From a virus, in the IMG/VR virus record IMGVR_UViG_3300045988_073597, positions 1 through 57,405 of that record: 57,405 nt of DNA; one strand, written 5' to 3'. Both the position numbers and the translations under genes were made by a program. The notes beneath the pieces are model-generated. The model saw nothing but the letters and a program-made list of their open reading frames with translations. It did not search any database and had not been told where the DNA came from. Of the stretch, positions 3,818-20,710 are shown piece by piece. Positions within the stretch are counted from its first letter, which is position 1. The number at the start of each line of letters is the position of its first letter.

Positions 3818-3845
3818 CCCCTTTATCTATCTTTTGTTTGAACAA

Positions 3846-4025: not shown

Positions 4026-4029
4026 ACTG

Positions 4030-4233: not shown

Positions 4234-4242
4234 ATATATCTC

Positions 4243-4491: not shown

Positions 4492-5162
4492 TATTTTTCG
4501 TCCAAAATGTATTGTCTGATAAATCTATCTGCATATTGAGGATGCATAAGGCTGCGTTCTGTTTTTCGACTTGTTTTGTCTGTTGATTTGACTCTTGCAA
4601 TAGTACGAATTTGTACTTCTTCTAACGGTTCAAAAACCAAATTATTTTTCGGCTTGAAATTTATAAACCAATACTGCGTAGGTTTTTTGTAATAATCACC
4701 GTTCTGCGTTCTGTCTTTATCAATCAACGATGGTTTAATGCACCAGTATGTGGTCAGATAGTGTGGCTGTGTATATGGATTTTCTATGATCATTTTCAAA
4801 CCTTTTCTGTATGCCACAACACATAATTGCGACAATTTTACATAAAATTCATGCAATTCTCTATGCAATCCAATTGAATAATCTAGCTTCTGAATGTTAT
4901 CCCATCCTTTTTGTTGCGTTGCCTGCCCTCTAAACAACAACGGAACGCGTGCTTCAAATCTGGTACATGGGAAAAATGCAAATATCAAATCATCTGGACT
5001 TACCTTATCAAACAAGCTCGGTTCACCGTTGTACCCCCCCCTCAATCTCTTTGAAAAGGTCGGTGATGTAGTCTGTTTCCCCGAACTCATTCTGCACATC
5101 GTAATCATATGCTTCAATTCCGTACTTCTTAAAAGCATTTTTAAATGTTCCAGATTGTTCAA
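4470..5162 (-). CDS. Hypothetical protein (FFPC...IENPY motifs faintly reminiscent of C5-methyltransferase motifs IV/VI, no motif I)
   Basis: 230-aa ORF with TTG start in the track and three in-frame stops immediately upstream. No AdoMet-binding FxGxG seen, so no enzymatic call is made. Confidence 0.55.
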   Translation of the reverse strand: MNNLEHLKMLLRSTELKHMITMCRMSSGKQTTSPTFSKRLRGGYNGEPSLFDKVSPDDLIFAFFPCTRFEARVPLLFRGQATQQKGWDNIQKLDYSIGLHRELHEFYVKLSQLCVVAYRKGLKMIIENPYTQPHYLTTYWCIKPSLIDKDRTQNGDYYKKPTQYWFINFKPKNNLVFEPLEEVQIRTIARVKSTDKTSRKTERSLMHPQYADRFIRQYILDEKYWKQEKK

Positions 5163-7537: not shown

Positions 7538-8284
7538 TTAAAATGGTGCAACACTTGGATTGTGTAGTTCCCATTCTTTGCATGGCTCTGCAACGTCCAC
7601 ATTTGACTGTATAGCAACTTTTTTCATTTGTTCGATAAAGTTATCCTTATCTGCATTTTCTCCTGATAAATGGCACATGATTACGTTCTGAACATCATCT
7701 GGCGAATAATTTGCTTCAACAAATTTACAAGCCGTATCAATGCTCATATGACCTCTGAGAACATGGCTTGCTTTTGCCGGATTGTTCATATCAACCATGT
7801 TTTCGTCGTAGTCAACACCAAGCAAAATGTGGTTTAAATCATCGAATCTCCATTTAACAAATTCAGTGTCAGTCACATACAGAAGCTTTCCCATTTCTGG
7901 ATGCGATATAACATATCCATAGCAAGGGCATTCACTTCCGTCTGCGTTTGTGTGCGTCCATTTTCCATCTTTCGTAGTAAGTTCAAATGCAATCACTCGA
8001 AATCTTGTATGGTCGAAATAGAGCCTGACAAGTGAATATTCGTCATTGGACAAGTATGGTGTTGCTACTTTTATTCCGATTTTTCTTAAATCGTAAACAG
8101 ATTTGCTATGATCTCCATGCCGATGAGTGACTATGCACCCAACCACATTTTTAATATTCCAATCCAACCCTTTTTTGATTTCAGAAATCGGAACACCACA
8201 ATCAAGGATAAGTGCTTCGCCATTGCTTGCTGTGAGTAAATGGCAGTTTCCAGAACTTCCAGTTCCTATCGTTCTCAAAAACAT
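7538..8284 (-). CDS. Metallo-beta-lactamase-fold hydrolase (possible nuclease)
   Basis: THRHGDH motif (HxHxDH) in a 248-aa protein. Confidence 0.75.
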   Translation of the reverse strand: MFLRTIGTGSSGNCHLLTASNGEALILDCGVPISEIKKGLDWNIKNVVGCIVTHRHGDHSKSVYDLRKIGIKVATPYLSNDEYSLVRLYFDHTRFRVIAFELTTKDGKWTHTNADGSECPCYGYVISHPEMGKLLYVTDTEFVKWRFDDLNHILLGVDYDENMVDMNNPAKASHVLRGHMSIDTACKFVEANYSPDDVQNVIMCHLSGENADKDNFIEQMKKVAIQSNVDVAEPCKEWELHNPSVAPF

Positions 8285-8294
8285 CTACACCACC

Positions 8295-8498
8295 TCACTT
8301 TCCTTTGCATAATTCAATAAAATCTGCTTTGCTCTTTTCGTGCAATTTATTCACAACAGATTTCTGAGCCAATTCGTGTGTATAAACAGGTCTGCCAAGA
8401 AGTTTTTGCATGTATTTATATAAAGCATCTCTTTCATCACCACTTGTCATACAGTAGCCTGTGTAAGTCTCAACGATTACACGCTCTTCCAGTGTCAT
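8295..8498 (-). CDS. Hypothetical protein
   Basis: 67-aa ORF. Confidence 0.5.
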   Translation of the reverse strand: MTLEERVIVETYTGYCMTSGDERDALYKYMQKLLGRPVYTHELAQKSVVNKLHEKSKADFIELCKGK

Positions 8499-8857
8499 TC
8501 AACCACCTCGATTTCATCATCCTGTGGAAATCGAAAAACTTCCATATTTATGTATTTTTTAAGAATGTTTTTGAACTCTTCTGGCTCTAACGATTCTTCC
8601 ATATGCTTGCAAGTGCCACTTGCAAGAGCTTTTATAATTTCAATTCTCGCATATTGCTCTCTCAGCATTTCCATAGCCTTAATTGCCTTTGCTTCGGTGG
8701 AATAAGTTGCAATAAGACTGTTCATAAACACTTCTGGTGGTTCTGCAACATTTTTAACTGCAACAATTCCACAATTCCCGCCACCCCTATTTAATATTGA
8801 AAAAACAAAATCTTCATAAGGAATATCTGTTTTTCCAGTCTGTGAAATTACTCTCAT
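8495..8857 (-). CDS. Hypothetical protein
   Basis: 120-aa ORF, 4-nt overlap with the next gene. Confidence 0.55.
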   Translation of the reverse strand: MRVISQTGKTDIPYEDFVFSILNRGGGNCGIVAVKNVAEPPEVFMNSLIATYSTEAKAIKAMEMLREQYARIEIIKALASGTCKHMEESLEPEEFKNILKKYINMEVFRFPQDDEIEVVE

Positions 8858-8859
8858 TT

Positions 8860-9612
8860 TTACTCACCTTTCATAAAATCCGGCATAGAGTTCTCTGGTT
8901 CTGCTGCCACAACTTCTGCATCAGCTTCAACAAATTCAACGCTGTTTGCATTTTTGGAAATGTCGTTCTGCACCTGTGCCTGCAATTCATCCATAGAAGA
9001 ATATTCTTTGAAGTCGTTATCCTGCATTTCCTCTCTTGTATACAATCCCATTGTCAACTCTGGGCAGTTAAGGCTTGAGAAGAATGATGCGGCTCTGTAT
9101 CTAAGCATAAGCTGTGGCATTGTTTTCCACTTGCTACCGTTTTTTCCAAGCCATCCCTCCGCTTTTGCCATATCCATGTCAACGGTCATGCCCTCTACTT
9201 TTCTGCCGTTTTTCGTAGTCCAGGCAAGGCAAGAATACGGTTTGCCGGAGTTATCTTTCTTTTCCTCGAACTGCAATTCCATGTCGAATTTTCCAGAATT
9301 ATTAATTGCTGCAATCAGAAATTTTGAACTCCATGACGGTCTACCCTGAATCACATAAAGATTCTGCATAACCATCAAAGGACTTACTTTAAGTCTCTGT
9401 GCCTGTTCAATGGCGATCAGACAGTTTGCATCATTCTTCTGGAAGGTAGATGGTACGATCGTTGAACTCGAAAGTGCTTTTGCCATCTGCATCGCCATAA
9501 TAAAGTTGTCTGATGTGCCAAAGATGCCAAGACTATAATCGGTTACTTTGTTATTATGTGCTGCCACTTCTTTTTTTTCTTCATTTACTGCCACTGCTGT
9601 GTTTTCTGCCAT
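8860..9612 (-). CDS. recT: RecT-family single-strand annealing recombinase
   Basis: QRLKVSPLMVMQNLYVIQGRPSWSSKFLIAAINNSGKF...MPQLMLRYRAASFF is typical of RecT. Confidence 0.85.
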   Translation of the reverse strand: MAENTAVAVNEEKKEVAAHNNKVTDYSLGIFGTSDNFIMAMQMAKALSSSTIVPSTFQKNDANCLIAIEQAQRLKVSPLMVMQNLYVIQGRPSWSSKFLIAAINNSGKFDMELQFEEKKDNSGKPYSCLAWTTKNGRKVEGMTVDMDMAKAEGWLGKNGSKWKTMPQLMLRYRAASFFSSLNCPELTMGLYTREEMQDNDFKEYSSMDELQAQVQNDISKNANSVEFVEADAEVVAAEPENSMPDFMKGE

Positions 9613-10136
9613 TATTTCATACCTCCGATTGTGATGTTAATTAATAAATGCAATGCTTCATTTTCTGTAAATCCTGCATCAACAAAAGATTTATAAAGTT
9701 TGTATACTTCTTTTGCTGCATCATTAATGCTATTATCTGCTTTTGGCTCTGAACTGGTTAACCGTTCAAATGCCAATCTGGCACCAATGTTGAAATCAAA
9801 TTTATCTTCCGGATTACAACGTGCAATGGCTTTCTTTCCTGTCGATTTATCAAGTGCAATCACCTGTCTATCTTTTTTGTAAATAACGATGGTTTCTGGT
9901 GCTATCTTTTCAATATTAGCTTTGTTCACATATAAGCACTGTTTGCCAGAAAGATGCGTTCCATCAATATCCTTGTCGTACATAGTTCCATTACCGCCAT
10001 CATGGAAGTCATCAAATTTTACTAAACAGTCAGTTTTGTATTCGAATATGACGGTGCCAGGTTTACCCTTAATATCGTATGTTGTTAAAAAATCGTCTTT
10101 AACTTTCACTCTGTCTCCGATTTTAAATTTGCTCAT
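9612..10136 (-). CDS. Hypothetical protein directly downstream of the RT
   Basis: ATG at 10136 (MSKFKIGDRVKVKDD...) preceded by GGAGGTAC; overlaps the RT stop by 14 nt. Confidence 0.6.
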   Translation of the reverse strand: MSKFKIGDRVKVKDDFLTTYDIKGKPGTVIFEYKTDCLVKFDDFHDGGNGTMYDKDIDGTHLSGKQCLYVNKANIEKIAPETIVIYKKDRQVIALDKSTGKKAIARCNPEDKFDFNIGARLAFERLTSSEPKADNSINDAAKEVYKLYKSFVDAGFTENEALHLLINITIGGMK

Positions 10137-11154
10137 GTTTGAGTACCTCCTTAACATATAAATCCATTGAATGACATAATTTAATGCAATTACCATGCAT
10201 TGCATGATTTTTCCAAGCATTATATTTTTCATAAAATTTTTGCTCTGACATTTTGTCAGAATTGACAAGTTTCGCCCAAACTCTAATCTTTTTTCGTATT
10301 CTTCTTTTGTTTACGCCATTCAATTTTCTTATGTATTTTCCGTCTTTTGTTATGTAATGATGAAAACCTGTAAATAACAGTCCGTTTTTAAATGGAATTA
10401 TTTGTGTCTTACCGTTAAGCGATAAACAAAGGCTATTCACGAATTGTTTTATACATTCAAGACACCACTTTAAATATTCCTTATCGTGATGAATTAAATA
10501 GAAATCATCCATGTATCTTCCATATAGTTCTATGCCTAATTCGCCAGTCGTAAAGTGATCTAATCCATTCAGAATAAGCAATGCATATACCTGTGCGGCC
10601 TGATTACCAAGTGGAAGCCCAATACCATCCGTGCTGTCAATTAACAAATGATTTAACCATTGCGTATAATCATCTTGGAAATAATAATCAACAACATCTT
10701 TTAAAATATCGTGATCTATTTGATAGAAAAATTTTGTAATATCACATTTTAAAATCCAGCCATCAATTCCATGTTGATTATAAAAATCCAACATTTGCTC
10801 TTTTAAACAATCCATTCCAAAATGTGTACCTTTTCCTATCTGCCCGGCATAATTAGTTCGAATAAATTCATTTGCTAATTTTAGATGCAACAAATTATCG
10901 CATAAGCAATGCTGTACCACTTTATCTTTAAATGAGCAGGACTTAATCACTCTTTCTTTAGGCTCATATACCTTAAATTCATTGTACGGATTCATCCGGT
11001 AAGTCTGATTTTCAAGCTGCTCTTTCAAAATGTGTAATCCCTCAAGATTCATTGTTTGAAATTTAGCACTGCTGCCATTAAATCCTTTGCCTGCTTTAGC
11101 TTTCTTATAAGCTTTATACAGGTTTCCAAAATCACATATAATATCTTTATCCAT
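10123..11154 (-). CDS. DGR reverse transcriptase
   Basis: YMDD box (YGRYMDDFYLI), LPLGNQAAQ motif, N-terminal NLYKAYKKAKAGKG; adjacent TR and avd. ATG at 11154 is preferred over the GTG at 11199. Confidence 0.9.
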   Translation of the reverse strand: MDKDIICDFGNLYKAYKKAKAGKGFNGSSAKFQTMNLEGLHILKEQLENQTYRMNPYNEFKVYEPKERVIKSCSFKDKVVQHCLCDNLLHLKLANEFIRTNYAGQIGKGTHFGMDCLKEQMLDFYNQHGIDGWILKCDITKFFYQIDHDILKDVVDYYFQDDYTQWLNHLLIDSTDGIGLPLGNQAAQVYALLILNGLDHFTTGELGIELYGRYMDDFYLIHHDKEYLKWCLECIKQFVNSLCLSLNGKTQIIPFKNGLLFTGFHHYITKDGKYIRKLNGVNKRRIRKKIRVWAKLVNSDKMSEQKFYEKYNAWKNHAMHGNCIKLCHSMDLYVKEVLKHEQI

Positions 11155-11262
11155 TGTAAAAAATCCTTTGTATTTATCCTTTTCGGAATGGTCATGCACT
11201 TTTTTGTATCTTTTTCTGATTTCGGCTTATTGCCTACTCTTACTACCTGTATGATACAGAAT

Positions 11263-11326
11263 GGGCGAACACCGTTGTTGTTGTTACAGTTGTTGTTGTT
11301 GATATTGCCGGACGGAGAAACAACGG
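11263..11326 (-). repeat. DGR template repeat (TR)
   Basis: In coding orientation it reads ccgttgtttctccgtccggc-AAT ATC (AAC)4 TGT (AAC)4-ggtgttcgccc. It matches three VRs, differing only at TR adenines, and is non-coding between avd and the RT. Confidence 0.9.
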
Positions 11327-11351
11327 TTTATACAGTACATAACCAGTAAAA

Positions 11352-11723
11352 TTATCTGCTTTTATCTTTCGTTCTCCAAGCAATCGCCATATGCTTGATA
11401 TCCGAAACCATTTTTGACCAATATTCCATACTTCTTGTGTTGATAATATTCAGTTTCATTGATAACTCAATGTAAAACAGAAGTTCATCACAGTGAGTTA
11501 TGGCTTTAGTCTGTAATTCTGACCGCTCTCTCCGGTAATACTTCAAATCGGTTCGATTTGCTTCATACAGATATTCATAGATTTCAAGTGCCTTATTCTG
11601 CATTTTGTCTACCAGTGAAAATCTGTATTTCTTTGGATATCTATTGCAATTTGAAGTTACACGCAATGTATGTTCTGCCAGATCTTTTGCTTTCAAAATT
11701 ACTTTTAAGTCTGATTCGGCCAT
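11352..11723 (-). CDS. avd: DGR accessory variability determinant (Avd, four-helix-bundle family)
   Basis: 123-aa basic helical protein (LAEHTLRVTSNCNRYPKKYRFSLVDKMQNKALEIYEYLYEANR) placed between the target genes and the TR. Confidence 0.75.
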   Translation of the reverse strand: MAESDLKVILKAKDLAEHTLRVTSNCNRYPKKYRFSLVDKMQNKALEIYEYLYEANRTDLKYYRRERSELQTKAITHCDELLFYIELSMKLNIINTRSMEYWSKMVSDIKHMAIAWRTKDKSR

Positions 11724-11727
11724 TTAC

Positions 11728-12324
11728 TTATTCCTCTGATTCAAAGATTGAAGATGAAAAGATACAAACCGGGCGAACACCGCGGTTGCGGTCACAGAAG
11801 TTGAAGCAGATAAGGCCGGACGGAGAAACAACGGCGACTGTCGATTTATAATTATTGCAAGGTGTGCTCCACGGTGTAATGAGCCACCACCATTCATCAG
11901 TATTCGGAATGAATTTTCTGTATTTTCGGTATTCGTCAACCGTCAAAAGAGATACAAAATCATCTGTTTCTCCATACTCCGTCTGTCCATCGAGTGATAA
12001 TAAATTTCTTTTGGAAGAAATTATATTCTCTCTTCCGACTTCTCTGGCGATTTTTTCATAAAACTCATTATTCAGATATTCTCTCAAGCTGCTTTCATTC
12101 CAGTCACTTGAGTTTTCATCAAACTTTTTATCTCCTAATGAGTCACCAATGCACATATATCCAGCATCCGTAATATCAAGGATTTTCCAGTTTATGTCTG
12201 CAAGTTCAAATTCATCTCCGATTTTTAATCCTTTCGGAATATGTATCACACCTATCTTTTTCTCAAGTGCTTTAACTCTGCCGAACAATTCTGAAATATC
12301 ATTTTCTGTAATTTTCTTTCCCAT
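11728..12324 (-). CDS. DGR variable protein 1 (DUF6273/DUF1566-like, C-type-lectin-like C-terminus)
   Basis: WWWLITPWS...VVSPSG[variable]GVRPVCIF; VR1 lies 43 nt from the stop. Confidence 0.85.
   Translation of the reverse strand: MGKKITENDISELFGRVKALEKKIGVIHIPKGLKIGDEFELADINWKILDITDAGYMCIGDSLGDKKFDENSSDWNESSLREYLNNEFYEKIAREVGRENIISSKRNLLSLDGQTEYGETDDFVSLLTVDEYRKYRKFIPNTDEWWWLITPWSTPCNNYKSTVAVVSPSGLICFNFCDRNRGVRPVCIFSSSIFESEE
11771..11834 (-). repeat. DGR variable repeat VR1
   Basis: 64 nt aligned to the TR without gaps; 13 differences, all at TR adenine positions. Confidence 0.9.
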
Positions 12325-12326
12325 GA

Positions 12327-12926
12327 TTACTTATCCCCTTTCGATACAAAGATATTAGATTTTAAGATACAAACCGGGCGAACACCGCTGCTGCCGTTAC
12401 AGTTGAAGCAGATAAGGCCGGACGGAGAAACAACGGCGACTGTCGATTTATAATTATTGCAAGGTGTGCTCCACGGTGTAATGAGCCACCACCATTCATC
12501 AGTATTCGGAATGAATTTTCTGTATTTTCGGTATTCGTCAACCGTCAAAAGAGATACAAAATCATCTGTTTCTCCATACTCCGTCTGTCCATCGAGTGAT
12601 AATAAATTTCTTTTGGAAGAAATTATATTCTCTCTTCCGACTTCTCTGGCGATTTTTTCATAAAACTCATTATTCAGATATTCTCTCAAGCTGCTTTCAT
12701 TCCAGTCACTTGAGTTTTCATCAAACTTTTTATCTCCTAATGAGTCACCAATGCACATATATCCAGCATCCGTAATATCAAGGATTTTCCAGTTTATGTC
12801 TGCAAGTTCAAATTCATCTCCGATTTTTAATCCTTTCGGAATATGTATCACACCTATCTTTTTCTCAAGTGCTTTAACTCTGCCGAACAATTCTGAAATA
12901 TCATTTTCTGTAATTTTCTTTCCCAT
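12327..12926 (-). CDS. DGR variable protein 2 (paralog; first 172 aa identical to protein 1)
   Basis: Same N-terminal 172 aa as 11728-12324; differs in the VR; its tail is identical to that of protein 3. Confidence 0.85.
   Translation of the reverse strand: MGKKITENDISELFGRVKALEKKIGVIHIPKGLKIGDEFELADINWKILDITDAGYMCIGDSLGDKKFDENSSDWNESSLREYLNNEFYEKIAREVGRENIISSKRNLLSLDGQTEYGETDDFVSLLTVDEYRKYRKFIPNTDEWWWLITPWSTPCNNYKSTVAVVSPSGLICFNCNGSSGVRPVCILKSNIFVSKGDK
12376..12436 (-). repeat. DGR variable repeat VR2 (one codon shorter than the TR)
   Basis: 61 nt; 10 substitutions, all at TR adenines, plus a 3-nt gap next to the invariant TGT codon. Confidence 0.85.
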
Positions 12927-12928
12927 GA

Positions 12929-13531
12929 TTACTTATCCCCTTTCGATACAAAGATATTAGATTTTAAGATACAAACCGGGCGAACACCGTTGAAGTTGAA
13001 ACAGCTGAAGCAGTTGACATCGCCGGACGGAGAAACAACGGACATGCTATACTTTAATCCTCTATCAGCAGTAGACCACGGTGTGCATGTCCACCACCAA
13101 TCATCCAGATCTTTGTTTACAATCAAATTGTTGAATCTTATAACCAAGCCAAAATTCGGCGGCATAACTTTGGCTCTACAAGGCTCAAATTCTTTCTGGT
13201 TATCAACAGAAAGAAGACTATTATCGTATTCAACAAGATTTTCAACCCCAACCTCAGATTCAATAACAGGCTGGATGCATTTTTCGATAACCTTTTTCAG
13301 ATTCGATTTATTGTAGTCTCGTGTATCTTCATCAAACACGACATTTTCCGCCATAAATCCTTTTGAGATCACGGTTGTCGTATCAAAATCATGTTTAAGA
13401 ACAATAAAATCATGTTCGCCGATTTTAAATACATCGCCTGGATCAAGTTCTGAAAGTCTGACCTTTTTTGCGTTTTCTGCTTCTTCAAGTCGTTTAACCA
13501 ATTCTCTTGCAAGTTCTAACTCTTTACTCAT
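12929..13531 (-). CDS. DGR variable protein 3 (diverged paralog)
   Basis: DDWWWTCTPWS...VVSPSG[variable]GVRPVCILKSNIFVSKGDK; ATG at 13531 preceded by GAGGG. Confidence 0.85.
   Translation of the reverse strand: MSKELELARELVKRLEEAENAKKVRLSELDPGDVFKIGEHDFIVLKHDFDTTTVISKGFMAENVVFDEDTRDYNKSNLKKVIEKCIQPVIESEVGVENLVEYDNSLLSVDNQKEFEPCRAKVMPPNFGLVIRFNNLIVNKDLDDWWWTCTPWSTADRGLKYSMSVVSPSGDVNCFSCFNFNGVRPVCILKSNIFVSKGDK
12978..13041 (-). repeat. DGR variable repeat VR3
   Basis: 64 nt; 11 differences from the TR, all at TR adenines. Confidence 0.9.
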
Positions 13532-13532
13532 T

Positions 13533-14075
13533 TTATTTTCCCTCACTTTTCTCAAATATTTTTAACTGTTCTGCCAGTTTTTTACATTCATCAGAAACAT
13601 ACTGTTCTGTTCTGACGACCTCGTCATTGGCCGGATATTTTCTTTCAATATCAATCTGTATTAAAAGCGGTATCCTGTATTTATGAAATGTCTTGCAGGC
13701 AAGTTCCAACTCTTTTCCGTCACCATAATGCCCGCAGTCAAAACCGAACCACCACAGATCACTTTTGATTGGATATTCTGAGTTTTCCCCACCATCAGAA
13801 TATGTAATTCCACCATGCACTTGAAAAAATGCTTCAATGCGAACTCTTTCATCTGAATCAAGAAGCATACCTAATAGTGGAAAAATACCGCTTACTTCTC
13901 TATCTTCAATGTCTCTTTTGTTGATTTCGAGATAATCACTGTACTTTTTGCCATATAATGGATGGCTTTTGTGAACTCCTACATATCCGCACCGATAACC
14001 ATATGCACCGAAAATAACAACACATTTATATCCATCATGTTCAAATTCATTTTCTACAATATATCTATCGCCCAT
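13533..14075 (-). CDS. Hypothetical protein
   Basis: 180-aa ORF, translationally coupled to the upstream ATPase gene. Confidence 0.6.
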   Translation of the reverse strand: MGDRYIVENEFEHDGYKCVVIFGAYGYRCGYVGVHKSHPLYGKKYSDYLEINKRDIEDREVSGIFPLLGMLLDSDERVRIEAFFQVHGGITYSDGGENSEYPIKSDLWWFGFDCGHYGDGKELELACKTFHKYRIPLLIQIDIERKYPANDEVVRTEQYVSDECKKLAEQLKIFEKSEGK

Positions 14076-14076
14076 A

Positions 14077-16002
14077 TCATCCCTCCAATACAGACAATTT
14101 GTTGCCGTCTGTTACTTCAAGCATGATTAGCTGGCAACAAACAGATTTTGAAACCCGTTCTTTGTTGCTAACATCCAATGATTCAGAATCATCCAGAAAC
14201 ACAGGCACGGATAAATCATTGATTTTCTGAATCGAATTGCAAATATCAACCTTTCCGATGATCTGATTTCCTTTATTGCTCATTGTTGAAATAATTGATT
14301 TTCCATCAATAGCAGGTATGCATACTGATTTGTAACCACCAGATTTATTCACTTCAAACAGCTGCCACTGAACGGTTTCAAAATGTTTGTTTATTTCGGC
14401 AGATAACTTCTGATTTTTAGCCTTTTCCAGTTCGCCAAGCAAATAAAGAATCTTTTCTGCATCTGATTTTTTTTGCTCCATATCAATTCTACGATCACGG
14501 AGTTCTTCAAGACGCTGCTCGTCTGCGGATGTGTCGGACTTTGAAATCTGGCTTTCACATTCAGACAATTTTCTGCGTATCTCATTTTCTTCCAGCTTCA
14601 ATTGACCACGCATGTCATCAACTTTCATTGATTTCTGCATTTCTGCTTCTTTTTCATCAATCTCAGCAGACAGTTTTTTGTATTCATCTGTATCTGAAAT
14701 ATCAACAAGTTTCGGGATTGCATCTAACTGCTTGTGATATTCGTCCAGTTTTGAAAGCACTGAATTGAGCTTTTTCATATTCTCTTCTGCCACAGATTCA
14801 AGTTCTGCAAGAACTGGTTTTGATTTCTCAATTTCCTCTCTTAACGCAGTTCCTTTTGCTTCGATTTCACAAAGCCGTTTCTTCTTGCTTTCCGCAAACT
14901 CTGAAACAAGGCGTTTAATTTCTTCGTCTGGCAAGTCTCTGTGGCATGTCGGACAAATGGTTGAGTTATAATCGAATTTTTCATTGTTGACAGCTACCCA
15001 CTTCTTTGCCAACAGTTCTCTGGCAGAATCTTTTTCACTGATCTCTGACTTAATCCGGTCAACAGCAACTCCATTTTTTCTGATTTCCTCATGGATAGAA
15101 TCTACAAATGCGTTTGCATCGTTGATTTTGTGCTGCATCTCACGGATTTTATTCAAATTCGCGTCATTAGCTTGTGTCTGTAATCCGCTCAGCTGAAATT
15201 TCAGTTCCAAAATCCCATCTGCTTTTTTCTGGATATCTTTTTCCAGTGCTTCTGCATCTGTCTGCTTCTTGACGTTACAAGCCAACTGCTCAGACAGCGT
15301 ATTTTTCAGAAGTTCCAGTTCTGCCACATCAACGTCTGATTTCAACTGAATGTCACGCTGTTTTTCTTTGATTTGCCCGTCAATGACAGGCAAATCCTTT
15401 TCGATTTTTGATTTTGTTGCCTTATTCATGGCAGTTAATTCATCATCAGAATATTTTTCAAGCAAACCTGTAATCGCAGAAAGTTCAGCATTTTCTTTTG
15501 CCACGTCCAGATCATTGACATTTTCAACCAGTCCAAACAGATAGCTTCTCATATCTGCTGTTTTCTGATTAAGAAATGCTCCCGGACTGCTGCACATTTT
15601 CAACAAATTCATATCGATCTCAAAATACTCATTAAATGCTTTGAGAGTTTTTGGAACTTCGTTGATGAAATATGTGTTGTCATCTGAATATCCGACACCA
15701 TCTTTTTTGTATTTGCGTTTCTGGACCTTTCTGGCAGTCACTTCCTTACCATCAATATCCAATACGGCAGTAACCGAAACGTCCATGTCGTCTACTGACT
15801 TACCACCAACAACTCTTCGTACTGCCGGATTATCCTTTAACTGGTAATCACATCCGAACATCAGCCATGTATAGGCTGTGGCAATAGTTGATTTACCGAT
15901 TCCGTTTCTACCGGCCACTACTGTTCTGTTGAAAAAATCAAACTCGGCATGTGGGTATGCCATGAAGTTATCAACAATGAGTTTTCTCAATACAATTTTC
16001 AT
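14077..16002 (-). CDS. Rad50/SbcC-like AAA ATPase with coiled coil and CxxC zinc hook
   Basis: Walker A GRNGIGKST; long coiled-coil middle with CPTC at its centre; C-terminal VFLDDSESLD Walker B/D-loop. Confidence 0.75.
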   Translation of the reverse strand: MKIVLRKLIVDNFMAYPHAEFDFFNRTVVAGRNGIGKSTIATAYTWLMFGCDYQLKDNPAVRRVVGGKSVDDMDVSVTAVLDIDGKEVTARKVQKRKYKKDGVGYSDDNTYFINEVPKTLKAFNEYFEIDMNLLKMCSSPGAFLNQKTADMRSYLFGLVENVNDLDVAKENAELSAITGLLEKYSDDELTAMNKATKSKIEKDLPVIDGQIKEKQRDIQLKSDVDVAELELLKNTLSEQLACNVKKQTDAEALEKDIQKKADGILELKFQLSGLQTQANDANLNKIREMQHKINDANAFVDSIHEEIRKNGVAVDRIKSEISEKDSARELLAKKWVAVNNEKFDYNSTICPTCHRDLPDEEIKRLVSEFAESKKKRLCEIEAKGTALREEIEKSKPVLAELESVAEENMKKLNSVLSKLDEYHKQLDAIPKLVDISDTDEYKKLSAEIDEKEAEMQKSMKVDDMRGQLKLEENEIRRKLSECESQISKSDTSADEQRLEELRDRRIDMEQKKSDAEKILYLLGELEKAKNQKLSAEINKHFETVQWQLFEVNKSGGYKSVCIPAIDGKSIISTMSNKGNQIIGKVDICNSIQKINDLSVPVFLDDSESLDVSNKERVSKSVCCQLIMLEVTDGNKLSVLEG

Positions 16003-16004
16003 TT

Positions 16005-16250
16005 TTATCCCCTTTCAACTAAAATATCTACACGAAGCATCGTGTCTAACACTTCTAACATGTGTTCTCTTGCTGTTTTTTCAAACAGGTCTAAGAAATC
16101 AACATTATCCATCTCATGCAAGCTAACGGCACTTCTCAATGCTGTCCGTGTTTCTGATGGCAGATCACCACGGCGAACGCTTGCTTCATATGAACCAAAA
16201 ATCTTTGATTTTTTGATTTCATCTCTAAGTTCTGTAAATGCTGTTCCCAT
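16005..16250 (-). CDS. Hypothetical protein
   Basis: 81-aa ORF. Confidence 0.55.
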   Translation of the reverse strand: MGTAFTELRDEIKKSKIFGSYEASVRRGDLPSETRTALRSAVSLHEMDNVDFLDLFEKTAREHMLEVLDTMLRVDILVERG

Positions 16251-16369
16251 TATTCGCCTGCACCTACAATTCCTGTAATTTTTCCATCCTCAATTACGAA
16301 CGTTTTTCCGAATACGTTGAGAAACTGTAACTCAACTAGCATTAACTCATTTGGATTTGTTACTATCAT
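16250..16369 (-). CDS. Small hypothetical protein (39 aa)
   Basis: Hand-translated MIVTNPNELMLVELQFLNVFGK...; GGAGGG RBS; overlapping TAATG and ATGA junctions. Confidence 0.35.
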   Translation of the reverse strand: MIVTNPNELMLVELQFLNVFGKTFVIEDGKITGIVGAGE

Positions 16370-16539
16370 CTGTATTTCCCTCCTGCATATTTATCTATAC
16401 GTCTGGATTTTCCGGTTGATTTATGTACTACGACCAGATAAAATTCTGTTTCTTTCTCAAGCATGTAGTTGTCCGCTACAAGTCCTTGTGCCGAAAGAAT
16501 CACTTTCTGGTCTCTAGTGAGCCTTTTCGGTTGCTTCAT
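16366..16539 (-). CDS. Small hypothetical protein (57 aa)
   Basis: Hand-translated MKQPKRLTRDQKVILSAQGL...; GGAG RBS. Confidence 0.4.
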   Translation of the reverse strand: MKQPKRLTRDQKVILSAQGLVADNYMLEKETEFYLVVVHKSTGKSRRIDKYAGGKYR

Positions 16540-16592
16540 TTTCCTATCACTCCTTTTTATGGTATAATCCTCTAAAAAGCGGAGGATTACTT

Positions 16593-16871
16593 ATGAAAAA
16601 CAAATACTTTTCAATTAATGAACTTGACACACCTATCAGAGAACTTCCAAAAGTCACCCCGGAATATGAACCGGGCGAATCTCCAAGAGAATTATTAGAG
16701 AAGCAAATCGCCACTCTTGAAAAATCTCAGAAAGATATGGAGCAACTTTTGGAGCTTACTAAAAGTGAAGCTAAGTCTGCCAAAAAATCGGAAATAATTT
16801 CAATCGTGTGTGCCATAGCATCTATTGCGTCCACATTGTTTTCTACGCTATTACCCTTGCTATCGAAATAG
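16593..16871 (+). CDS. Counter-oriented tail-anchored membrane protein
   Basis: TGgTATAAT extended -10 at 16560-16568, GGAGGA RBS, C-terminal hydrophobic segment IISIVCAIASIASTLFSTLLPLL. Confidence 0.55.
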   Translation: MKNKYFSINELDTPIRELPKVTPEYEPGESPRELLEKQIATLEKSQKDMEQLLELTKSEAKSAKKSEIISIVCAIASIASTLFSTLLPLLSK

Positions 16872-16973
16872 CCAATCCAATAAGTGAAATACACAGAGCA
16901 GAGATGGACAACACTAATGTGAAATTCGAAAACCATTTCATGTTTTTACCTCTTTCTTCCTTATTAAATGTAC

Positions 16974-17702
16974 CTACACAAGCCTTATCTGAGCATTTGC
17001 ATATCTGATCTGTTCCTCAAGCACTTTCGGAACTTCATAACCACTGATAAGATCGTGAGCATCATCAATCCATTTTCTCTTGATTGATTTGTAAGATGAT
17101 ACGCAACCGTACTCACGTTTCAGCTGTCGGTAAATATCTTTAAACACTGAACTTCTAATACTTCCGTCACGATATGCTTCACTTGTCTTTCCACCAAGCA
17201 CATCTACAACCTTGCGATTAACGTGATTTTTGATATCATCAATCTCGCACCCATACAGTGGCATGTCATTCTCCAAAGAATCAATCTTTTTCTCAACGTC
17301 AGAAACACGCTCGTTCAGTTCCGTATTTCCAAGTGCCAGAAGTTTAATCTGTTCCGCTGTTGACATCGGTTTGCGATAACCACCTGTTTTGCGGATTGTT
17401 GGGAGAACTTCTGATGTTACCCAGTGTTTGAATCTTTTTGCTGATTCAAGTTTGCTGCCGAAAATCAACGCATATAAACCGGATTCATTGATAACTGTCT
17501 GATTTGGGTTTCCTCTTTTTCCGTCGGAAATCACGACGGTATTCTTATCCTCGTCCGCAACGTGTGTTGATAGCGCATCTCTTGTATTGGAATACCCTAA
17601 TGCTTCTGCAACATCTTTTCCGACAAAATATATTTCATTGTCAATAGTTACCGTTCTGATTTCACCGAACTCTTCTGAATTAAAAATCTGTAATTCGTTC
17701 AT
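16974..17702 (-). CDS. Antirepressor (Bro-N domain, ORF6C-type C-terminal domain)
   Basis: FNSEEFGEIRTVTIDNEIYFVGKDVAEALGY...ESGLYALIFGSKLESAKRFKHWVTSEVLPTIRKTG. Confidence 0.8.
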   Translation of the reverse strand: MNELQIFNSEEFGEIRTVTIDNEIYFVGKDVAEALGYSNTRDALSTHVADEDKNTVVISDGKRGNPNQTVINESGLYALIFGSKLESAKRFKHWVTSEVLPTIRKTGGYRKPMSTAEQIKLLALGNTELNERVSDVEKKIDSLENDMPLYGCEIDDIKNHVNRKVVDVLGGKTSEAYRDGSIRSSVFKDIYRQLKREYGCVSSYKSIKRKWIDDAHDLISGYEVPKVLEEQIRYANAQIRLV

Positions 17703-17761
17703 TTGTTCTTCACCTGCTTTCTGTGATATAATTGTTCAAAAAAAATCGGAGGATTCATGCA

Positions 17762-18085
17762 ATGATTTTTAAAAATGATATAAAACTACTAAAAATAATC
17801 AAATCGACAACGCCAACACTTCCAAACGATTTCTACGACTGGAGCGAAATTTTTCAAATTTCAGGTATGTCTAAAACCGAATATCTCGTATCAATCCGAA
17901 ATCTTCATGAAAACGGATTGATTTCATTTGGCGACCATTCACAAACTGCTTTCCGCTTAGAAGCTTCAGGAATCTACTTTAAAGAATTTCAAAGCCAAAA
18001 TCTGAAACGGTATGTCATGGATAAGCTCGTTGATTTTCTCGCCGTAATCGTCGCTGTAATTGCCCTGATAGTTTCCATTGCCTAA
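17762..18085 (+). CDS. Counter-oriented protein with C-terminal membrane anchor
   Basis: TGaTATAAT at 17724-17732, GGAGGA RBS, ATG at 17762, C-terminus LVDFLAVIVAVIALIVSIA. Confidence 0.5.
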   Translation: MIFKNDIKLLKIIKSTTPTLPNDFYDWSEIFQISGMSKTEYLVSIRNLHENGLISFGDHSQTAFRLEASGIYFKEFQSQNLKRYVMDKLVDFLAVIVAVIALIVSIA

Positions 18086-18402
18086 TGCATTGATTCCAGT
18101 AATTTCCACCGTTCTTCAAATTCCGGTTCTGTCATGCACTTCTGGATAACCACATCGAGATATTTTTTGCGCTCTTTCGGTGTGGTCATATCCTCTATTT
18201 TTTTAACGTATGGTTTTAATATTGAGGATTTGGTTTTTTTACCGAAACTTTTTGAACTATCAGGCAGCCAATCAAATCCGATTGGTTTTCGCCCTATTCT
18301 TCTGTCCCATACGTTGTCAATGATGTTCCAGTAAATATCCAGAAGTTCTTCTTTTTCTCTGTGCTCAAGAGTTTCAAACATTTCCACTTTTTTTCTCACC
18401 AC
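18082..18402 (-). CDS. Hypothetical protein
   Basis: 106-aa ORF. Confidence 0.55.
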   Translation of the reverse strand: MVRKKVEMFETLEHREKEELLDIYWNIIDNVWDRRIGRKPIGFDWLPDSSKSFGKKTKSSILKPYVKKIEDMTTPKERKKYLDVVIQKCMTEPEFEERWKLLESMH

Positions 18403-18483
18403 CTTTTCTAAAATTCAATCTAACCTTTTGCTCGTTTTGTTTCCGTGGTATAATTAGTGAAACATAATTTTGGGAGGTTACAC

Positions 18484-18909
18484 ATGTTAAACTCAAATAA
18501 TTTTGATTGGTCTTATGTGATCTCTGGCATAACACTTGTTGTAGCCATTGTTTCACCAGTCCTTGTCACGATACTAAACAACTATCACAACTCAAAAATC
18601 CGAAAACTCGAATTGGATTATCAAAATCAACTTTCCTATTATCAGAAACAAGAATCCGTATTCAATTCCTTTTTGGAGTCAGCTTCTAAACAAATTAATC
18701 ATGATTATCCATCGGAAAGAAACGAATACATGCAATCTTACAATCAGCTTTTCCTCTATTCACCAGAAGAATACTGGGAACAATTCAAAAAACTGAATGA
18801 AGCCGTTGTAAATCGCAACAAAGACGAATCAACAAAATTACTATCGTCTACGGCAGTATCATTGGGAAAAATCCTGCAAGAATCTGCCCTAATGTTCCCA
18901 AAACTATAG
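18484..18909 (+). CDS. Counter-oriented protein with N-terminal membrane anchor
   Basis: TGgTATAAT at 18446-18454, GGGAGG RBS, ATG at 18484, N-terminus WSYVISGITLVVAIVSPVLVTIL. Confidence 0.55.
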   Translation: MLNSNNFDWSYVISGITLVVAIVSPVLVTILNNYHNSKIRKLELDYQNQLSYYQKQESVFNSFLESASKQINHDYPSERNEYMQSYNQLFLYSPEEYWEQFKKLNEAVVNRNKDESTKLLSSTAVSLGKILQESALMFPKL

Positions 18910-19288: not shown

Positions 19289-19314
19289 TCCCTTTCTTTC
19301 ATCTTATGACAGAA

Positions 19315-19335
19315 TAATATCACACCATGATAGTT
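19315..19335. promoter_or_regulatory. Operator-like palindrome O2 (TAATATCA-N5-TGATAGTT)
   Basis: Same architecture as O1, in the cro/cI intergenic region. Confidence 0.45.
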
Positions 19336-19379
19336 ATGTCAATCGTATTATGAAAGTTTTTTATAAAAATTGTTTACTT

Positions 19380-19431: not shown

Positions 19432-19797
19432 ATGAGTAGCGAACAATATTGCATTAAGGTTGGAAACAGAATTAAAGTAGCCAGAAAGGACAAGGGAATA
19501 ACTTTAAAAGAACTTGGAGAAAAAATAGGTCTTACAGAAGCAACTATTCAAAAGTACGAATCTGGTAACATAAAAAATATTGATGTTGAGCTTTTAAAAA
19601 GAATGGCAACAGTATTAGAAGTAGATCCAGCTTTATTAGCCGCATGGGAAGATGATTACAAAATAAGTCCATCAGATAAGGAATCTATGGGAAAACAGTA
19701 CGGTGAAATCATAAAAATATACAGCCAGCTTACACCGGGGCATAAAATGGCTGTACTTAATTTAATGAAAGATTTGTTAGATTGTCAAGAAAAGTAA
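19432..19797 (+). CDS. CI-like XRE-family repressor
   Basis: HTH ITLKELGEKIGLTEATIQKYESGNIKN; GGAGAAAAAAC-ATG RBS; divergent from the cro-like gene. Confidence 0.8.
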   Translation: MSSEQYCIKVGNRIKVARKDKGITLKELGEKIGLTEATIQKYESGNIKNIDVELLKRMATVLEVDPALLAAWEDDYKISPSDKESMGKQYGEIIKIYSQLTPGHKMAVLNLMKDLLDCQEK

Positions 19798-20066
19798 ACG
19801 GTTTCAATATATTCTAACAAATTCTTACATTCTATCATAGGGAGTATATCTAAGAGTTCATCAATTTTCTTGATATACTCTCTTTTCAATTCTAGTGTTT
19901 CTTCCTTGTAATCCACAGCAATTCCCCCTTTGAATTTTACTCTGAAATAATTATAGAACGTATGTTCTTTATTTTCGAGTATTGATTTTTGATATCAGCT
20001 AGTATAATATAGATTATGCGAACAAATGAGGAAATTTTGTCGATAATTTGGCAAAAGAAGAAAAAA

Positions 20067-20095
20067 AGAGCAACCAATAACGGTTGCTCTTTTTC
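20067..20095. terminator. Bidirectional intrinsic terminator
   Basis: agagcaacc-aataac-ggttgctct flanked by an A-run and a T-run, between convergent genes. Confidence 0.7.
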
Positions 20096-20100
20096 CTTTA

Positions 20101-20683: not shown

Positions 20684-20710
20684 TAAAAAAAGAGGGGCAA
20701 AACGCCCCTC
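20684..20710 (-). terminator. Intrinsic terminator after the endolysin gene
   Basis: gaggggc-loop-gcccctc followed by a T-run on the minus strand. Confidence 0.7.

Follow-up and report, generated by a model that had tools for sequence, protein, structure and literature searches.

A DGR within an early recombination operon

The window, which is the whole stretch of 57,405 nucleotides that was analysed, belongs to a temperate siphophage of Lachnospiraceae, and its DGR lies within a leftward early recombination/replication operon. Judged by its sequence, the region at 10123-13531 (minus strand) appears to be a complete active DGR. It holds a reverse transcriptase (RT), a 64-nt core of the template repeat (TR), an Avd accessory protein, and three targets of about 200 aa, and this anatomy is nearly certain. 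The cassette runs in the order Avd, 64-nt TR core, and RT. The putative RT gene (10123..11199, minus strand, with a likely ATG start at 11154) matches RVT_1 (E 3e-12; 3.4e-12) and phrog_1423 (E 1.7e-91). Its translation contains YMDD and LGNQAAQ, the latter a variant of the (I/L)GxxxSQ motif, and these matches and motifs point to an RT of the DGR type adjoining the TR. Avd (11352..11723, minus strand) is assigned through phrog_3206, "Avd protein of DGR" (E 7e-23). Its Pfam matches to bAvd (22.9 bits, under the cut-off of 40) and 23S_rRNA_IVP are weak. The TR core (11263..11326, minus strand) has 64 nt with 19 adenines and nine AAY codons. Homology reaches to about 11253, and the 3' flank of the TR is of the IMH* type (GGTGTTCGCCCATTCTGTATC), unlike the flank of the VRs (GGTGTTCGCCCGGTTTGTATC). 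The VRs end 30-45 nt ahead of the stop codons of the targets. The TR/VR ends occur four times in the whole window, against about 0.02 occurrences expected by chance. An accessory ORF between RT and RecT (9612..10133, minus strand) is found in only some relatives and had no family match among Pfam and PHROG profiles.

The three target genes, all on the minus strand, are separated by gaps of 2-4 nt. T1 (11728..12324) encodes 198 aa, T2 (12327..12926) 199 aa, and T3 (12929..13531) 200 aa from its ATG. VR1 (11771..11834, minus strand) and VR3 (12978..13041, minus strand) have 64-nt cores with 13 and 11 differences from the TR. VR2 (12376..12436, minus strand) has 61 nt, with one AAC codon absent, and 10 differences when the 3-nt gap is allowed. 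In each VR every difference falls at a TR adenine, which gives 34 of 34 substitutions when the three are pooled. By their sequences, the three targets are two conserved paralogue types and a very recent duplicate copy. T1 and T3 stand for the "T1-type" and the "T3-type" paralogue, and T2 appears to be a recent mosaic with the body of T1 and the post-VR tail of T3. T3 and T2 share 37% identity. A 602-nt tandem duplication (11799..12989, minus strand) accounts for the arrangement. Positions 11799-12387 are identical to 12401-12989 and the junctions lie within the VRs, so the third target found here goes back to an unequal crossover between VRs that doubled one copy. Across 589 nt T1 and T2 do not differ at all; their differences lie only in the 3' half of the VR, and the DGR therefore appears to have worked after this very recent duplication.

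The first-pass annotation had placed the targets between a Rad50/SbcC-like ATPase and RecT, and profile matches bear this out. The ATPase (14077..16002, minus strand) matches phrog_77 (E 4.8e-52) and, weakly, the Pfam families AAA_23 and Rad50 zinc-hook. Downstream, the RecT single-strand annealing protein (8860..9612, minus strand) matches PF03837 (E 7.6e-8) and phrog_561 (E 1.5e-76). A gene for a 180-aa protein of phrog_2164 (13533..14075, minus strand), which only some relatives have, lies between the ATPase and T3 and its stop adjoins the T3 start. It was also correct that the targets lie more than 8 kb from the tail genes: the nearest tail gene starts at 21787, a distance of 8.3 kb. Between it and the targets are an endolysin gene, two strong terminator-like hairpins, a gene for a CI-like repressor (19432-19797, plus strand), and a strong leftward promoter-like site. 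This site, the strongest sigma-70-like one (TTGACA-17-TATTAT with TG; 19314..19342, minus strand), is a consensus match only. It diverges from the repressor gene and faces the early operon, and no strong terminator-like hairpin was found between it and the targets. The late operon ends in terminator-like hairpins at 20.06-20.7 kb, and a bidirectional one at 20061..20096 (no strand assigned) closes this operon of tail and lysis genes. The targets thus sit in the early recombination operon and have no recognizable virion-anchoring domain, in keeping with the earlier view that they are not proteins of the tail module. A megablast search of 9000-17000 against GenBank phages gave no match, and the phage lineage is known only from metagenomes and MAGs. 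An annotated T3 with 92% identity is present in Eubacterium ramulus.

Family, fold, and variation of the targets

The targets are small, acidic, single-domain proteins. T1 and T2 match Pfam DUF6273 (PF19789) with 44 and 45.9 bits, above the cut-off of 23.5, and T3 scores slightly under it with 22.3-22.4 bits. All three match phrog_9958 at E 1e-45 to 8e-25 (T1 2e-45, T3 8e-25). The fold signature had been read as DUF6273/DUF1566-type. The DUF6273 part is upheld by these scores, and the DUF1566 part is unsupported, since the targets gave no DUF1566 match at E <= 10. Membership in DUF1566 or the FGE-sulfatase family was rejected as well for seven family members, with no match even at E <= 10. Weak matches to S100 (EF-hand) across residues 57-127, approximately, with E 0.004-0.013 were judged spurious; the canonical Ca-loop pattern is absent. 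The short N-terminal helix that had been proposed is also predicted by AlphaFold2 (AF2), at residues 7-24. Each target, T3 included, would thus carry an amphipathic helix of about 20 residues ahead of its DUF6273 domain. The AF2 model from a shallow alignment (A3) was unusable (pLDDT 55.9), and the one from a more diverse alignment (A5; pLDDT 69.4) was too weak in the VR half to confirm the fold. A Foldseek search with the latter model against the PDB returned only noise. In BFVD, its best structural neighbors (E 2e-3 to 2e-2, TM about 0.5) included a DUF6273 protein and MAG proteins that carry the name "Receptor Binding Protein". A C-type-lectin-like fold has been described in published models of homologues (PMC10743442).

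The targets have no signal peptide or transmembrane segment, as had been noted. Their maximum Kyte-Doolittle mean over 19 residues is about 1.0, and their N-termini are charged. Among the best 150 representative clusters of homologues, none has a signal-peptide-like N-terminus, and the median length is 207.5 aa. This stands as an observation and fails as an argument for a cytoplasmic role: Mtd of Bordetella phage BPP-1 has no signal peptide either, and assembly of virion proteins also takes place in the cytoplasm. No recognizable virion-docking or anchoring domain was found in the targets, and no beta-prism, beta-sandwich, or Ig domain. There is a weak match to phrog_10993, "Hoc-like head decoration", across the VR-bearing C-terminus. 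A secreted IgA protease with a sortase anchor has DUF6273 as its N-terminal domain (PMC12402451). The DUF6273 domain also occurs in virion-type proteins, namely the Ig-like stalk fusions called tentaclins and a fusion to the tail-fibre N-domain in Pioen (PMC10743442, PMC11792537). These occurrences suggest that the family is typically extracellular.

Variation among 120 natural homologues is centered on VR codons 171-180. Only eight VR codons, those for residues 171, 173-175, and 177-180, have a Shannon entropy above 3 bits, and a group of phages of about 80 kb has the same pattern. The sequences therefore point to ongoing mutagenic retrohoming, with population variation confined to the VR. 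The class is large. At E <= 1e-3, 1,896 representative clusters match it, and some of the 90%-identity clusters contain tens of thousands of variant sequences.

Gene context and related systems

A survey of other phages and prophages, which had been suggested for DUF6273-type targets, found early-operon placement to be general. In every lineage annotated, the small DUF6273 proteins are encoded among early DNA-metabolism or lysogeny-switch genes. A T3-type and T1-type pair lies inside SbcC/RecT/MBL/SSB modules in 74 of 80 IMG/VR loci, with the T3-type orthologue upstream of the T1-type gene (74/80). SbcC identity in these loci goes down to 25-53%, so distant relatives are included. The slot varies, and the pair or module can be found between SbcC and RecT, between RecT and the MBL hydrolase, after SSB, or after Int/HTH; the order in the group of about 80 kb is RecT, target pair, MBL hydrolase. 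Weak precomputed hits had raised the possibility that the MBL hydrolase is the anti-Pycsar nuclease Apyc1, which was rejected (18.5 bits, cut-off 50). Prophage loci in GTDB genomes (25-59% identity; Lachnospiraceae, Oscillospiraceae, Christensenellales) had recognizable neighbors in 33 of 36 cases. These were almost all early genes, with no tail or capsid gene among them; the exceptions are three loci that have, about 7 kb downstream, a gene for a head protease or a small terminase. Over about 150 contexts, a small target gene was adjacent to a recognized tail or capsid gene in none, which is weak evidence because the set of structural-gene markers was small.

The small targets, Avd, TR, and RT move as a single module in the majority of the lineages surveyed. 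This module is present in 51 of the 73 loci with enough downstream sequence and is missing or decayed in 21. The Eubacterium ramulus prophage has kept the targets but lost RT and TR, and of the 123 aa of Avd it retains 48. The truncated Avd marks a decayed cassette, and this prophage was rejected as an ancestral DGR-free state. In the group of about 80 kb, locus L154 has no cassette within 6.8 kb and had suggested a remote cassette. That idea was rejected after a TR-specific scan, which found a match about 500-600 nt downstream of the T1-type VR in four other loci (L096, L106, L116, and L205), and the full VR-VR-TR spacing is present in L197 and L216. L154 is probably a DGR-less variant, and with a TR so near the T1-type VR the group gives no argument that targets are independent of the cassette. 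Two jumbo-phage contigs carry a singleton that is 72-81% identical, between NAMPT/NAD synthase (NAD-salvage) genes and a Tad2-like gene, with tRNA and RNA-repair genes close by. From their sequences, these copies look horizontally transferred. The association with Tad2-like and NAD-salvage genes is guilt by association in one lineage.

Small DUF6273 targets are a class that has already been published, and it includes nd4_tgt2 and nd12_tgt2 (PMC10743442), gp24 of Faecalibacterium phage FP_Toutatis (bioRxiv 10.1101/2024.10.15.618418), and the small targets of Lelie and CP11 (PMC11792537). The first two, from gut myophage DGRs (Baykov et al. 2023, PMC10743442), are homologous, with 33-35% identity to T2 (tblastn). 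Their AF2 models have one globular C-lec-like domain flanked by short helices (PMC10743442). Like the window's targets, they consist of DUF6273 only, have a C-terminal VR, and are encoded in an early operon of recombination genes (RNase_T, Gam, ERF, SSB). In nd4 the cassette is located by the tail genes at 19-21 kb and the first target is a tentaclin. Unlike the targets here, nd4_tgt2 is the second target of its DGR and lies far off, at 31 kb, some 10 kb away from Avd/RT, in an operon of LPD15, RNase_T, Gam, ERF, and SSB, and it is a single copy instead of a paralogue pair. The terminal helix is N-terminal in the window's targets, whereas it is C-terminal in Brigit, Toutatis, and nd4. The Toutatis, Lelie, and CP11 targets are likewise small, DUF6273-only proteins of the early region and share about 33-36% identity across two thirds of the protein. 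With a presence in 98.8% of its genus, gp24 of Toutatis counts as a core gene (bioRxiv 10.1101/2024.10.15.618418). Targets of its type persist in genomes without a DGR, as the targets of the Eubacterium ramulus prophage do. Toutatis gp24 differs in its distance from the TR (17.5 kb), its cassette occupies a tail-to-integrase hotspot, and no SbcC/RecT module adjoins it. Small targets can thus be found 10-17 kb from the cassette or TR and still in the early region (nd4, Toutatis). Brigit gp06 follows HTH regulators and precedes exonuclease and RecT genes.

Comparison with the larger virion-type targets is also informative. The DGR of BPP-1 has in common with the present one Avd, TR, and RT, adenine mutagenesis, a C-terminal VR, and an IMH-type flank, and Mtd is likewise a ligand-binding variable protein without a signal peptide. 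The BPP-1 TR has 134 nt, against about 64-76 nt of homology here. Mtd, a protein of 381 aa encoded after the tail genes, binds to the tail fibres through its N-terminal domains. The window's targets differ, having only the helix of about 20 residues before the domain and lying in the early operon, with two terminators as well as distance separating them from tail genes. Homology to Mtd was rejected, with an hhalign probability of 0.2% and no detectable sequence or profile similarity. Tentaclins bear their VR in the same domain family (an N-terminal DUF6273/C-lec domain with an Ig-like stalk). They have 313-650 aa, 1-4 Ig domains, a C-terminal anchor motif, and a VR near the N-terminus, and their genes lie beside late genes; a tentaclin-type protein of 608 aa in a Moorella phage adjoins tail genes. 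The targets here, with 198-200 aa, a C-terminal VR, and no Ig domain, are not of this kind, and a search for TR/VR ends found no tentaclin in the window. Phages with both types have their tentaclin in the late part of the genome and their small target in the early part.

Possible roles of the small targets

Phage DGRs are generally taken as host-range devices, and to our knowledge every experimentally characterized phage DGR target is a virion receptor-binding protein. Published authors also read the small targets as receptor-binding proteins (PMC10743442, bioRxiv 10.1101/2024.10.15.618418, PMC11792537). The small targets may have another role than this commonly assumed receptor binding, since their genes lie among early recombination genes and not tail genes. 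Three features suggest early production of the targets, as soluble binders within the infected cell, namely the tight packing with SbcC-like, RecT, MBL-hydrolase, and SSB genes, the absence of a strong terminator-like hairpin after the predicted early promoter, and the early neighborhoods across many Clostridia phages that are unrelated. In lambdoid phages, early operons have the host-takeover and anti-defence genes gam, ral, and abc beside exonuclease and annealing-protein genes. We favor the reading that the targets are early soluble intracellular binders, most likely a counter-defence or host-takeover factor, with a rough probability of 0.4. Its cytoplasmic counter-defence part is plausible, and gene position is the one line of evidence for it. 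The TR RNA would be copied by the error-prone RT with Avd, and the adenine-mutagenized cDNA would replace the 64-nt VR just before the stop of each target. Within a stretch of ten residues, about nine codons templated by AAY would be randomized in this way. The targets could then bind a strain-variable component of the host or of a rival phage and so serve as an evolvable factor, and the N-terminal helices may join the two paralogues as a pair. It is somewhat unlikely, though worth considering, that gut Clostridia phages hypermutate small cytoplasmic lectin-fold binders, produced along with the early recombination genes, against strain-variable immunity proteins of the host or rival-phage factors, with the T3-type and T1-type pair possibly a helix-joined heterodimer. 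Cellular C-lec sensors diversified by DGRs (STAND-type putative antigen sensors, PMC10907252; cyanobacterial regulators, PMC7517822) are a precedent for cytoplasmic proteins of this fold in conflict systems. These are large, multidomain proteins on the side of defence, whereas the window's targets are single-domain phage proteins with no effector domain. No proposal of a DGR-diversified counter-defence was found in the literature.

The targets could instead be accessory adhesins or receptor-binding proteins of the virion. Produced in the infected cell, they would use the short helices at their ends to dock non-covalently on the tail tip or the capsid, VR variation would broaden adsorption to host or mucosal ligands, and the early position would be incidental. 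This is a doubtful but serious possibility. Mtd is a precedent, and DUF6273 bears the VR in tentaclins and in the tail-fibre-like target of Pioen (PMC10743442, PMC11792537). The weak Hoc-like match at the VR-bearing C-terminus and the "Receptor Binding Protein" names of the BFVD neighbors agree with such a role, and the terminal helices could be docking elements. A common ecological role is hinted at in nd4 and Toutatis, where a virion-type tentaclin and the small protein draw on one TR. No beta-prism, beta-sandwich, or Ig anchoring domain was found in the targets, however, and the roughly 150 contexts gave no adjacent recognized tail or capsid gene. Where both types occur they are divided between late and early regions, and the 1347-aa tail protein of this phage is encoded by a separate gene and has no VR. 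Structural genes in the early operon of a temperate siphophage would be very unusual, and this also counts against the adhesin. In the literature, no virion proteomics covering small DUF6273 targets and no expression data were found. The lack of an export signal in a domain family that is otherwise extracellular could also be explained by release at lysis, an alternative proposed in the first-pass annotation. The small, single-domain, acidic targets are as expected of a soluble lectin. Such a lectin would build up in the cytoplasm until the burst and might bind host envelope debris, neighbor cells, or mucus, possibly masking receptors so that progeny are spared dead-end adsorption, or blocking competitor phages. 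Selection on such a public good is hard to couple to the VR genotype that encodes it, which would undermine the benefit of a DGR, and expression early instead of late is left unexplained. We know of no precedent for a lysis-released DGR lectin, and this role is very unlikely.

Another explanation is that the position of the targets is uninformative. The DUF6273 pair, Avd, TR, and RT would form a semi-autonomous accessory cassette that persists at insertion-tolerant sites, early hotspots for example. Expression during DNA replication would benefit RT and Avd, with the targets simply retained in cis. The targets do move with Avd, TR, and RT, so their position could reflect where such a cassette is tolerated. 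The variable slots, the presence of the module in some loci and its loss in others, and the jumbo-phage copies that look transferred all fit with this, as does the Eubacterium ramulus prophage. In nd4, Toutatis, and Brigit-like phages, however, the small gene is early while the cassette is elsewhere, and gp24 is nearly universal in its genus. The retention of targets after loss of the DGR in 21 loci suggests that they have a function of their own in that place. An accessory cassette that explains the position by itself is unlikely.

A whole abundant class of DGR targets is encoded in early recombination modules and not in tail modules, and Firmicutes phages with a DGR rank with the most prevalent viruses of the human gut. 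Should the targets work within the cell, targeted hypermutation would serve as a further weapon in the arms race that phage and host wage there, and the targets would be natural, compact, evolvable binder scaffolds. If they serve counter-defence, this would be the first DGR known to do so rather than to serve adsorption, and each phage lineage would have an evolvable, antibody-like repertoire. If they are virion components instead, short helices encoded outside the structural module would be a new attachment mode for receptor-binding modules. Inducible prophages with such targets are available in culture for Faecalibacterium (Lelie and Toutatis) and, for the present lineage, in Eubacterium ramulus.

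The DGR and its operon

The three small DGR targets (T1, T2 and T3) are present in the window as the first-pass annotation had described them, and the other parts of the element, the accessory protein (Avd), the template repeat (TR) and the reverse transcriptase (RT), were each located. All are on the minus strand. In order of transcription there are an SbcC-like ATPase (14077-16002; phrog_77, E 4.8e-52), a phrog_2164 protein (13533-14075), T3 (12929-13531 from its ATG, 200 aa), T2 (12327-12926, 199 aa), T1 (11728-12324, 198 aa), Avd (11352-11723; phrog_3206, E 7e-23), the 64-nt TR core (11263-11326) between Avd and RT, RT (10123-11199; RVT_1; phrog_1423, E 1.7e-91), a 173-aa ORF (9612-10133) between RT and RecT, and RecT (8860-9612; PF03837; phrog_561, E 1.5e-76). 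Neighbouring genes in the stretch from the phrog_2164 ORF to Avd are separated by 1-4 nt. The 173-aa ORF matched nothing in Pfam or PHROG. Some relatives carry it at 91-98% conservation and others lack it, and this patchy presence indicates an accessory gene riding beside the DGR cassette.

In the whole-window map, the minus strand carries the integrase (146-1282), helicase loaders, SSB and an MBL-fold hydrolase (7538-8284), and then the RecT-to-SbcC block. An antirepressor (16974-17702) is found farther upstream of the SbcC-like block. The best promoter-like site (19342-19314, minus) is faced by a CI-like repressor (19432-19797, plus), and there are two strong terminator-like hairpins (20061-20096 and 20692-20710). 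Beyond the hairpins are the endolysin, a 1347-aa tail protein, a Dit-like protein, the tape measure, capsid, portal and large terminase. The nearest tail gene is 8.3 kb from the targets, with lysis genes, terminators and the lysogeny switch in between. On this map the three targets are therefore part of a leftward early operon, in agreement with their earlier placement between the SbcC-like ATPase and RecT, more than 8 kb from the tail genes.

The genome order is unusual in that the integrase is not next to the CI-like repressor but at the distal end of the early operon. The late operon reads toward this repressor. Three ORFs in the switch region (17732-18085, plus; 18082-18402, minus; 18457-18909, plus) are without functional annotation, the middle one matching only a function-less PHROG. 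A 747-aa ORF (38201-40444), flanked by the portal and capsid genes, matched no PHROG at E <= 1e-5. Precomputed annotations hinted that the MBL-fold hydrolase, which is kept within the recombination module, might be the anti-Pycsar nuclease Apyc1. This was rejected because the score, 18.5 bits, is far under the cut-off of 50; the gene encodes a generic MBL-fold protein.

The TR core contains 19 adenines and nine AAY codons. The variable repeats of T1, T2 and T3 (VR1, VR2 and VR3) have 13, 10 and 11 mismatches to it, and all 34 fall at TR adenines. Four copies of the conserved TR/VR ends are present in the window, and no remote target or tentaclin was found when the whole window was scanned for them. 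The 3' flank is …CGCCCGGTTTG… in the VRs and …CGCCCATTCTG… in the TR, a difference in line with IMH versus IMH*. In 120 natural T2 homologues (72-91% identity), the only positions with a Shannon entropy above 3 bits are residues 171, 173-175 and 177-180, which are the AAY-templated codons. Judged by its sequence, the DGR is real and active. It diversifies its targets by ordinary DGR mutagenic retrohoming. VR2 (12376-12436) has one AAC codon fewer than the TR, and close homologues span 196-202 aa, which points to slippage in the number of AAC codons during retrohoming, or to recombination. The TR/VR homology (11253-11326) is short, with a 64-nt core and about 76 nt including the flank. One published DGR pipeline has an alignment cut-off of at least 90 nt (methods of PMC11792537), and DGRs of this type may therefore be under-counted.

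The count of three targets holds for the ORFs, but these represent two paralogues and one recent copy. A stretch of 589 nt (11799-12387 and 12401-12989) is the same in T1 and T2, and the post-VR tail of T2 is that of T3. The result is a 602-nt tandem duplication (11799-12989) with its junctions within the VRs, T2 having the body of T1 and the tail of T3. An unequal crossover between VR1 and VR3 would be expected to yield T2, and the location of the junctions implies that VR homology serves as a substrate for it. In VR1 and VR2 the 5' half is common to both, and the differences, at adenine sites and of one codon, are confined to the 3' half; thus the DGR acted after the duplication. The usual state in relatives is one T3-type gene followed by one T1-type gene. 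This conserved paralogue pair is new here, and the diagnostic C-terminal tails of the two types, CILKSNIFVSK and CIFSSSIFESE, are found across three phage groups. A third copy was gained independently in two further loci (L024 and L052). Fused tandem proteins with two DUF6273 domains (P0361, P0376, P0381, P0382 and P0390; 355-411 aa) are also present among the homologues, and P0361 (395 aa) has a helix ahead of the second domain. These fusions, which are predicted gene calls, hint in 'Rosetta-stone' fashion that tandem copies could act together.

Protein family and fold

T1 and T2 are above the Pfam threshold for DUF6273 and T3 is slightly below it; all three match phrog_9958. The element is a DGR with small DUF6273 targets, a class already in the literature. 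The DUF1566-type signature claimed earlier was not recovered, as a profile search gave no match even at E <= 10. The targets have charged N-termini and, as had been noted, no hydrophobic stretch. The N-terminal helix was likewise predicted, at residues 7-24, in the better AlphaFold2 model (pLDDT 69.4, pTM 0.67), together with a mixed alpha/beta domain; confidence is low from the WWW motif through the VR. Foldseek with this model (pLDDT 69.4) found nothing in the PDB and only weak neighbours in BFVD, among them a DUF6273 protein and MAG proteins that carry the automatic name 'Receptor Binding Protein'. A sequence-profile search identified a single relative of known structure, the N-terminal DUF6273 domain of ThomasA (E 2.5e-8), a secreted IgA protease (PMC12402451). 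Profile comparison with Mtd gave no similarity. The putative C-type-lectin fold of the targets rests on published homologue models (PMC10743442; bioRxiv 10.1101/2024.10.15.618418). Recurrent weak S100 EF-hand profile matches at T2 residues ~57-127 (E 0.004-0.013) are probably due to chance. This stretch includes a conserved D-G-Q-x-E-Y-G loop.

An exhaustive HMMER search identified 1,896 representative clusters at E <= 1e-3, 752 of them at E <= 1e-10. The best 150 of the 1,896 have a median length of 207.5 aa (144 of 150 are <= 320 aa), and a crude test detected no signal-peptide-like N-terminus in any of these 150. In some 90%-identity clusters the distinct sequences number in the thousands or tens of thousands, as expected under hypermutation.

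Early-gene context in other phages

Relatives in GenBank phages were found by tblastn in nd4, nd12, FP_Brigit, FP_Toutatis and Lelie. According to Baykov et al. (PMC10743442), nd4_tgt2 and nd12_tgt2 are DUF6273-only proteins with a single globular C-lec domain and short flanking helices, and an Mtd-like receptor-binding role is proposed for them. The small target of Toutatis, according to Egorov and Atkinson (bioRxiv 10.1101/2024.10.15.618418), is separated from the TR by 17,480 nt, belongs to the core genes (98.8% of genomes) and is kept where the DGR is absent. 'Small DGR targets' are also described in Lelie and CP11 in a Faecalibacterium prophage study (PMC11792537). The available portions of these papers do not discuss early-operon position as such for the nd4/nd12, Toutatis and Lelie/CP11 targets.

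The early-operon placement of small DUF6273 targets generalises, and this generality of the recombination-module context is new here. The pair was present in 74 of 80 IMG/VR loci found with the family alignment, and the T3 side was not covered in four more. SbcC-like identity to the window falls to 25-53%, which indicates a broad phage group. The pair lies after SbcC, in the RecT/MBL interval or after SSB. Where downstream sequence is sufficient (73 loci), Avd and RT are both present in 51, both absent in 21, and Avd is alone in one. An exact-motif scan matched almost exclusively ~200-aa proteins, and 66 of its 103 clustered full-length proteins (>=190 aa) form a group mostly on ~70-85-kb contigs. 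A representative locus of this group has SSB-like, SbcC, RecT, the pair and the MBL hydrolase. The VR is hypervariable there also, and several loci have a TR-specific pattern ~500-600 nt downstream of the T1-type VR, as in the window. In one ~80-kb phage (L154), an inserted transposase (3364-4917; phrog_506) separates the SbcC-like gene from RecT.

Prophages, for which the first-pass annotation had suggested a survey, gave a similar picture. Loci in species-representative genomes (36 loci, 25-59% identity) have hosts that include Lachnospira, Agathobacter, Roseburia, Dorea, Mediterraneibacter, Oscillospiraceae and Christensenella. Recognisable neighbours, present in 33 of the 36, are SSB, SbcC, MBL, RecT, exonucleases, replication initiators, DnaC, RusA, methyltransferases, an HD-domain protein, RecU, HTH/CI regulators, integrases and antirepressors. 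Structural matches were limited to a head protease or small terminase, ~7 kb downstream, in three loci. The structural-gene markers for the context surveys came from two phages only. The positive early-gene matches are strong evidence; the result of no tail match is weaker. In distant prophage loci the recurring module is two small DUF6273 genes, then Avd and RT. In nd4-type phages, Avd and RT are at 19.2-21.0 kb, past the tail genes, and tgt2 is at 31 kb, where it overlaps its neighbours in an operon with LPD15, RNase_T, Gam, ERF, SSB, DnaC and RecU. Brigit gp06 follows HTH regulators, ahead of two exonucleases and RecT, and Brigit-like prophages have the small-target gene after RusA. Toutatis gp24 is among early genes, ~3 kb upstream of the replication initiator.

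A decayed cassette was observed in Eubacterium ramulus (GCA_977050415.1, 10001-12600). Only 48 of the 123 aa of Avd are left and RT and TR are missing, but both targets are intact. An unrelated 354-aa ORF appears to be in RecT's place.

Possible roles of the targets

The targets may be early intracellular binders that act in counter-defence or host takeover, to which we assign a probability of roughly 0.4. The proposal of such a role in the first-pass annotation is partly supported, by the early context, but the family is virion-type or secreted elsewhere. The position is consistently non-structural, and in nd4, Toutatis and Brigit-like phages it does not depend on where the cassette lies. The targets are tightly packed with recombination genes (1-4 nt spacers or overlaps) and lack any anchoring domain, and the window phage has a separate, non-variable large tail protein. 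Temperate phages commonly place host-takeover genes beside recombination genes, which also argues for an early intracellular role, as does an island in jumbo phages. However, all characterised phage DGR targets are virion proteins, a TR also serves tentaclins in some phages, and the module as a whole may just occupy a place that tolerates accessory DNA. These points favour a virion or extracellular role, and we consider a virion adhesin only slightly less probable than the early intracellular binder. A lysis-released lectin, or a position that is uninformative, takes the remaining weight and is unlikely. No virion proteomics on the nd4, nd12, Brigit, Toutatis and Lelie phages, and no proposal of DGR-diversified counter-defence, were found in the literature.

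The occurrence of a target in an anti-defence island is new here. Its link to counter-defence is guilt by association in one lineage and is not proof. Phage counter-defence functions include NAD+ reconstitution and Tad2. Two jumbo-phage contigs have a singleton T1-type gene, L224 (204 kb; 9001-9591) and L013 (155 kb; 7998-8591). These genes are 72-81% identical, with an intact VR and an IMH-type flank, and no TR was found within 8-9 kb. Upstream are a phosphoribosyltransferase, NAMPT and NAD synthase, with an isochorismatase-type gene only in the 204-kb contig. Downstream are a Tad2-like gene (28.7 bits against a cut-off of 25) and an RlaP-family gene, and in the 204-kb contig also PTH2 and a CCA-adding-type nucleotidyltransferase. 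The island of this contig also includes TerD and PspA.
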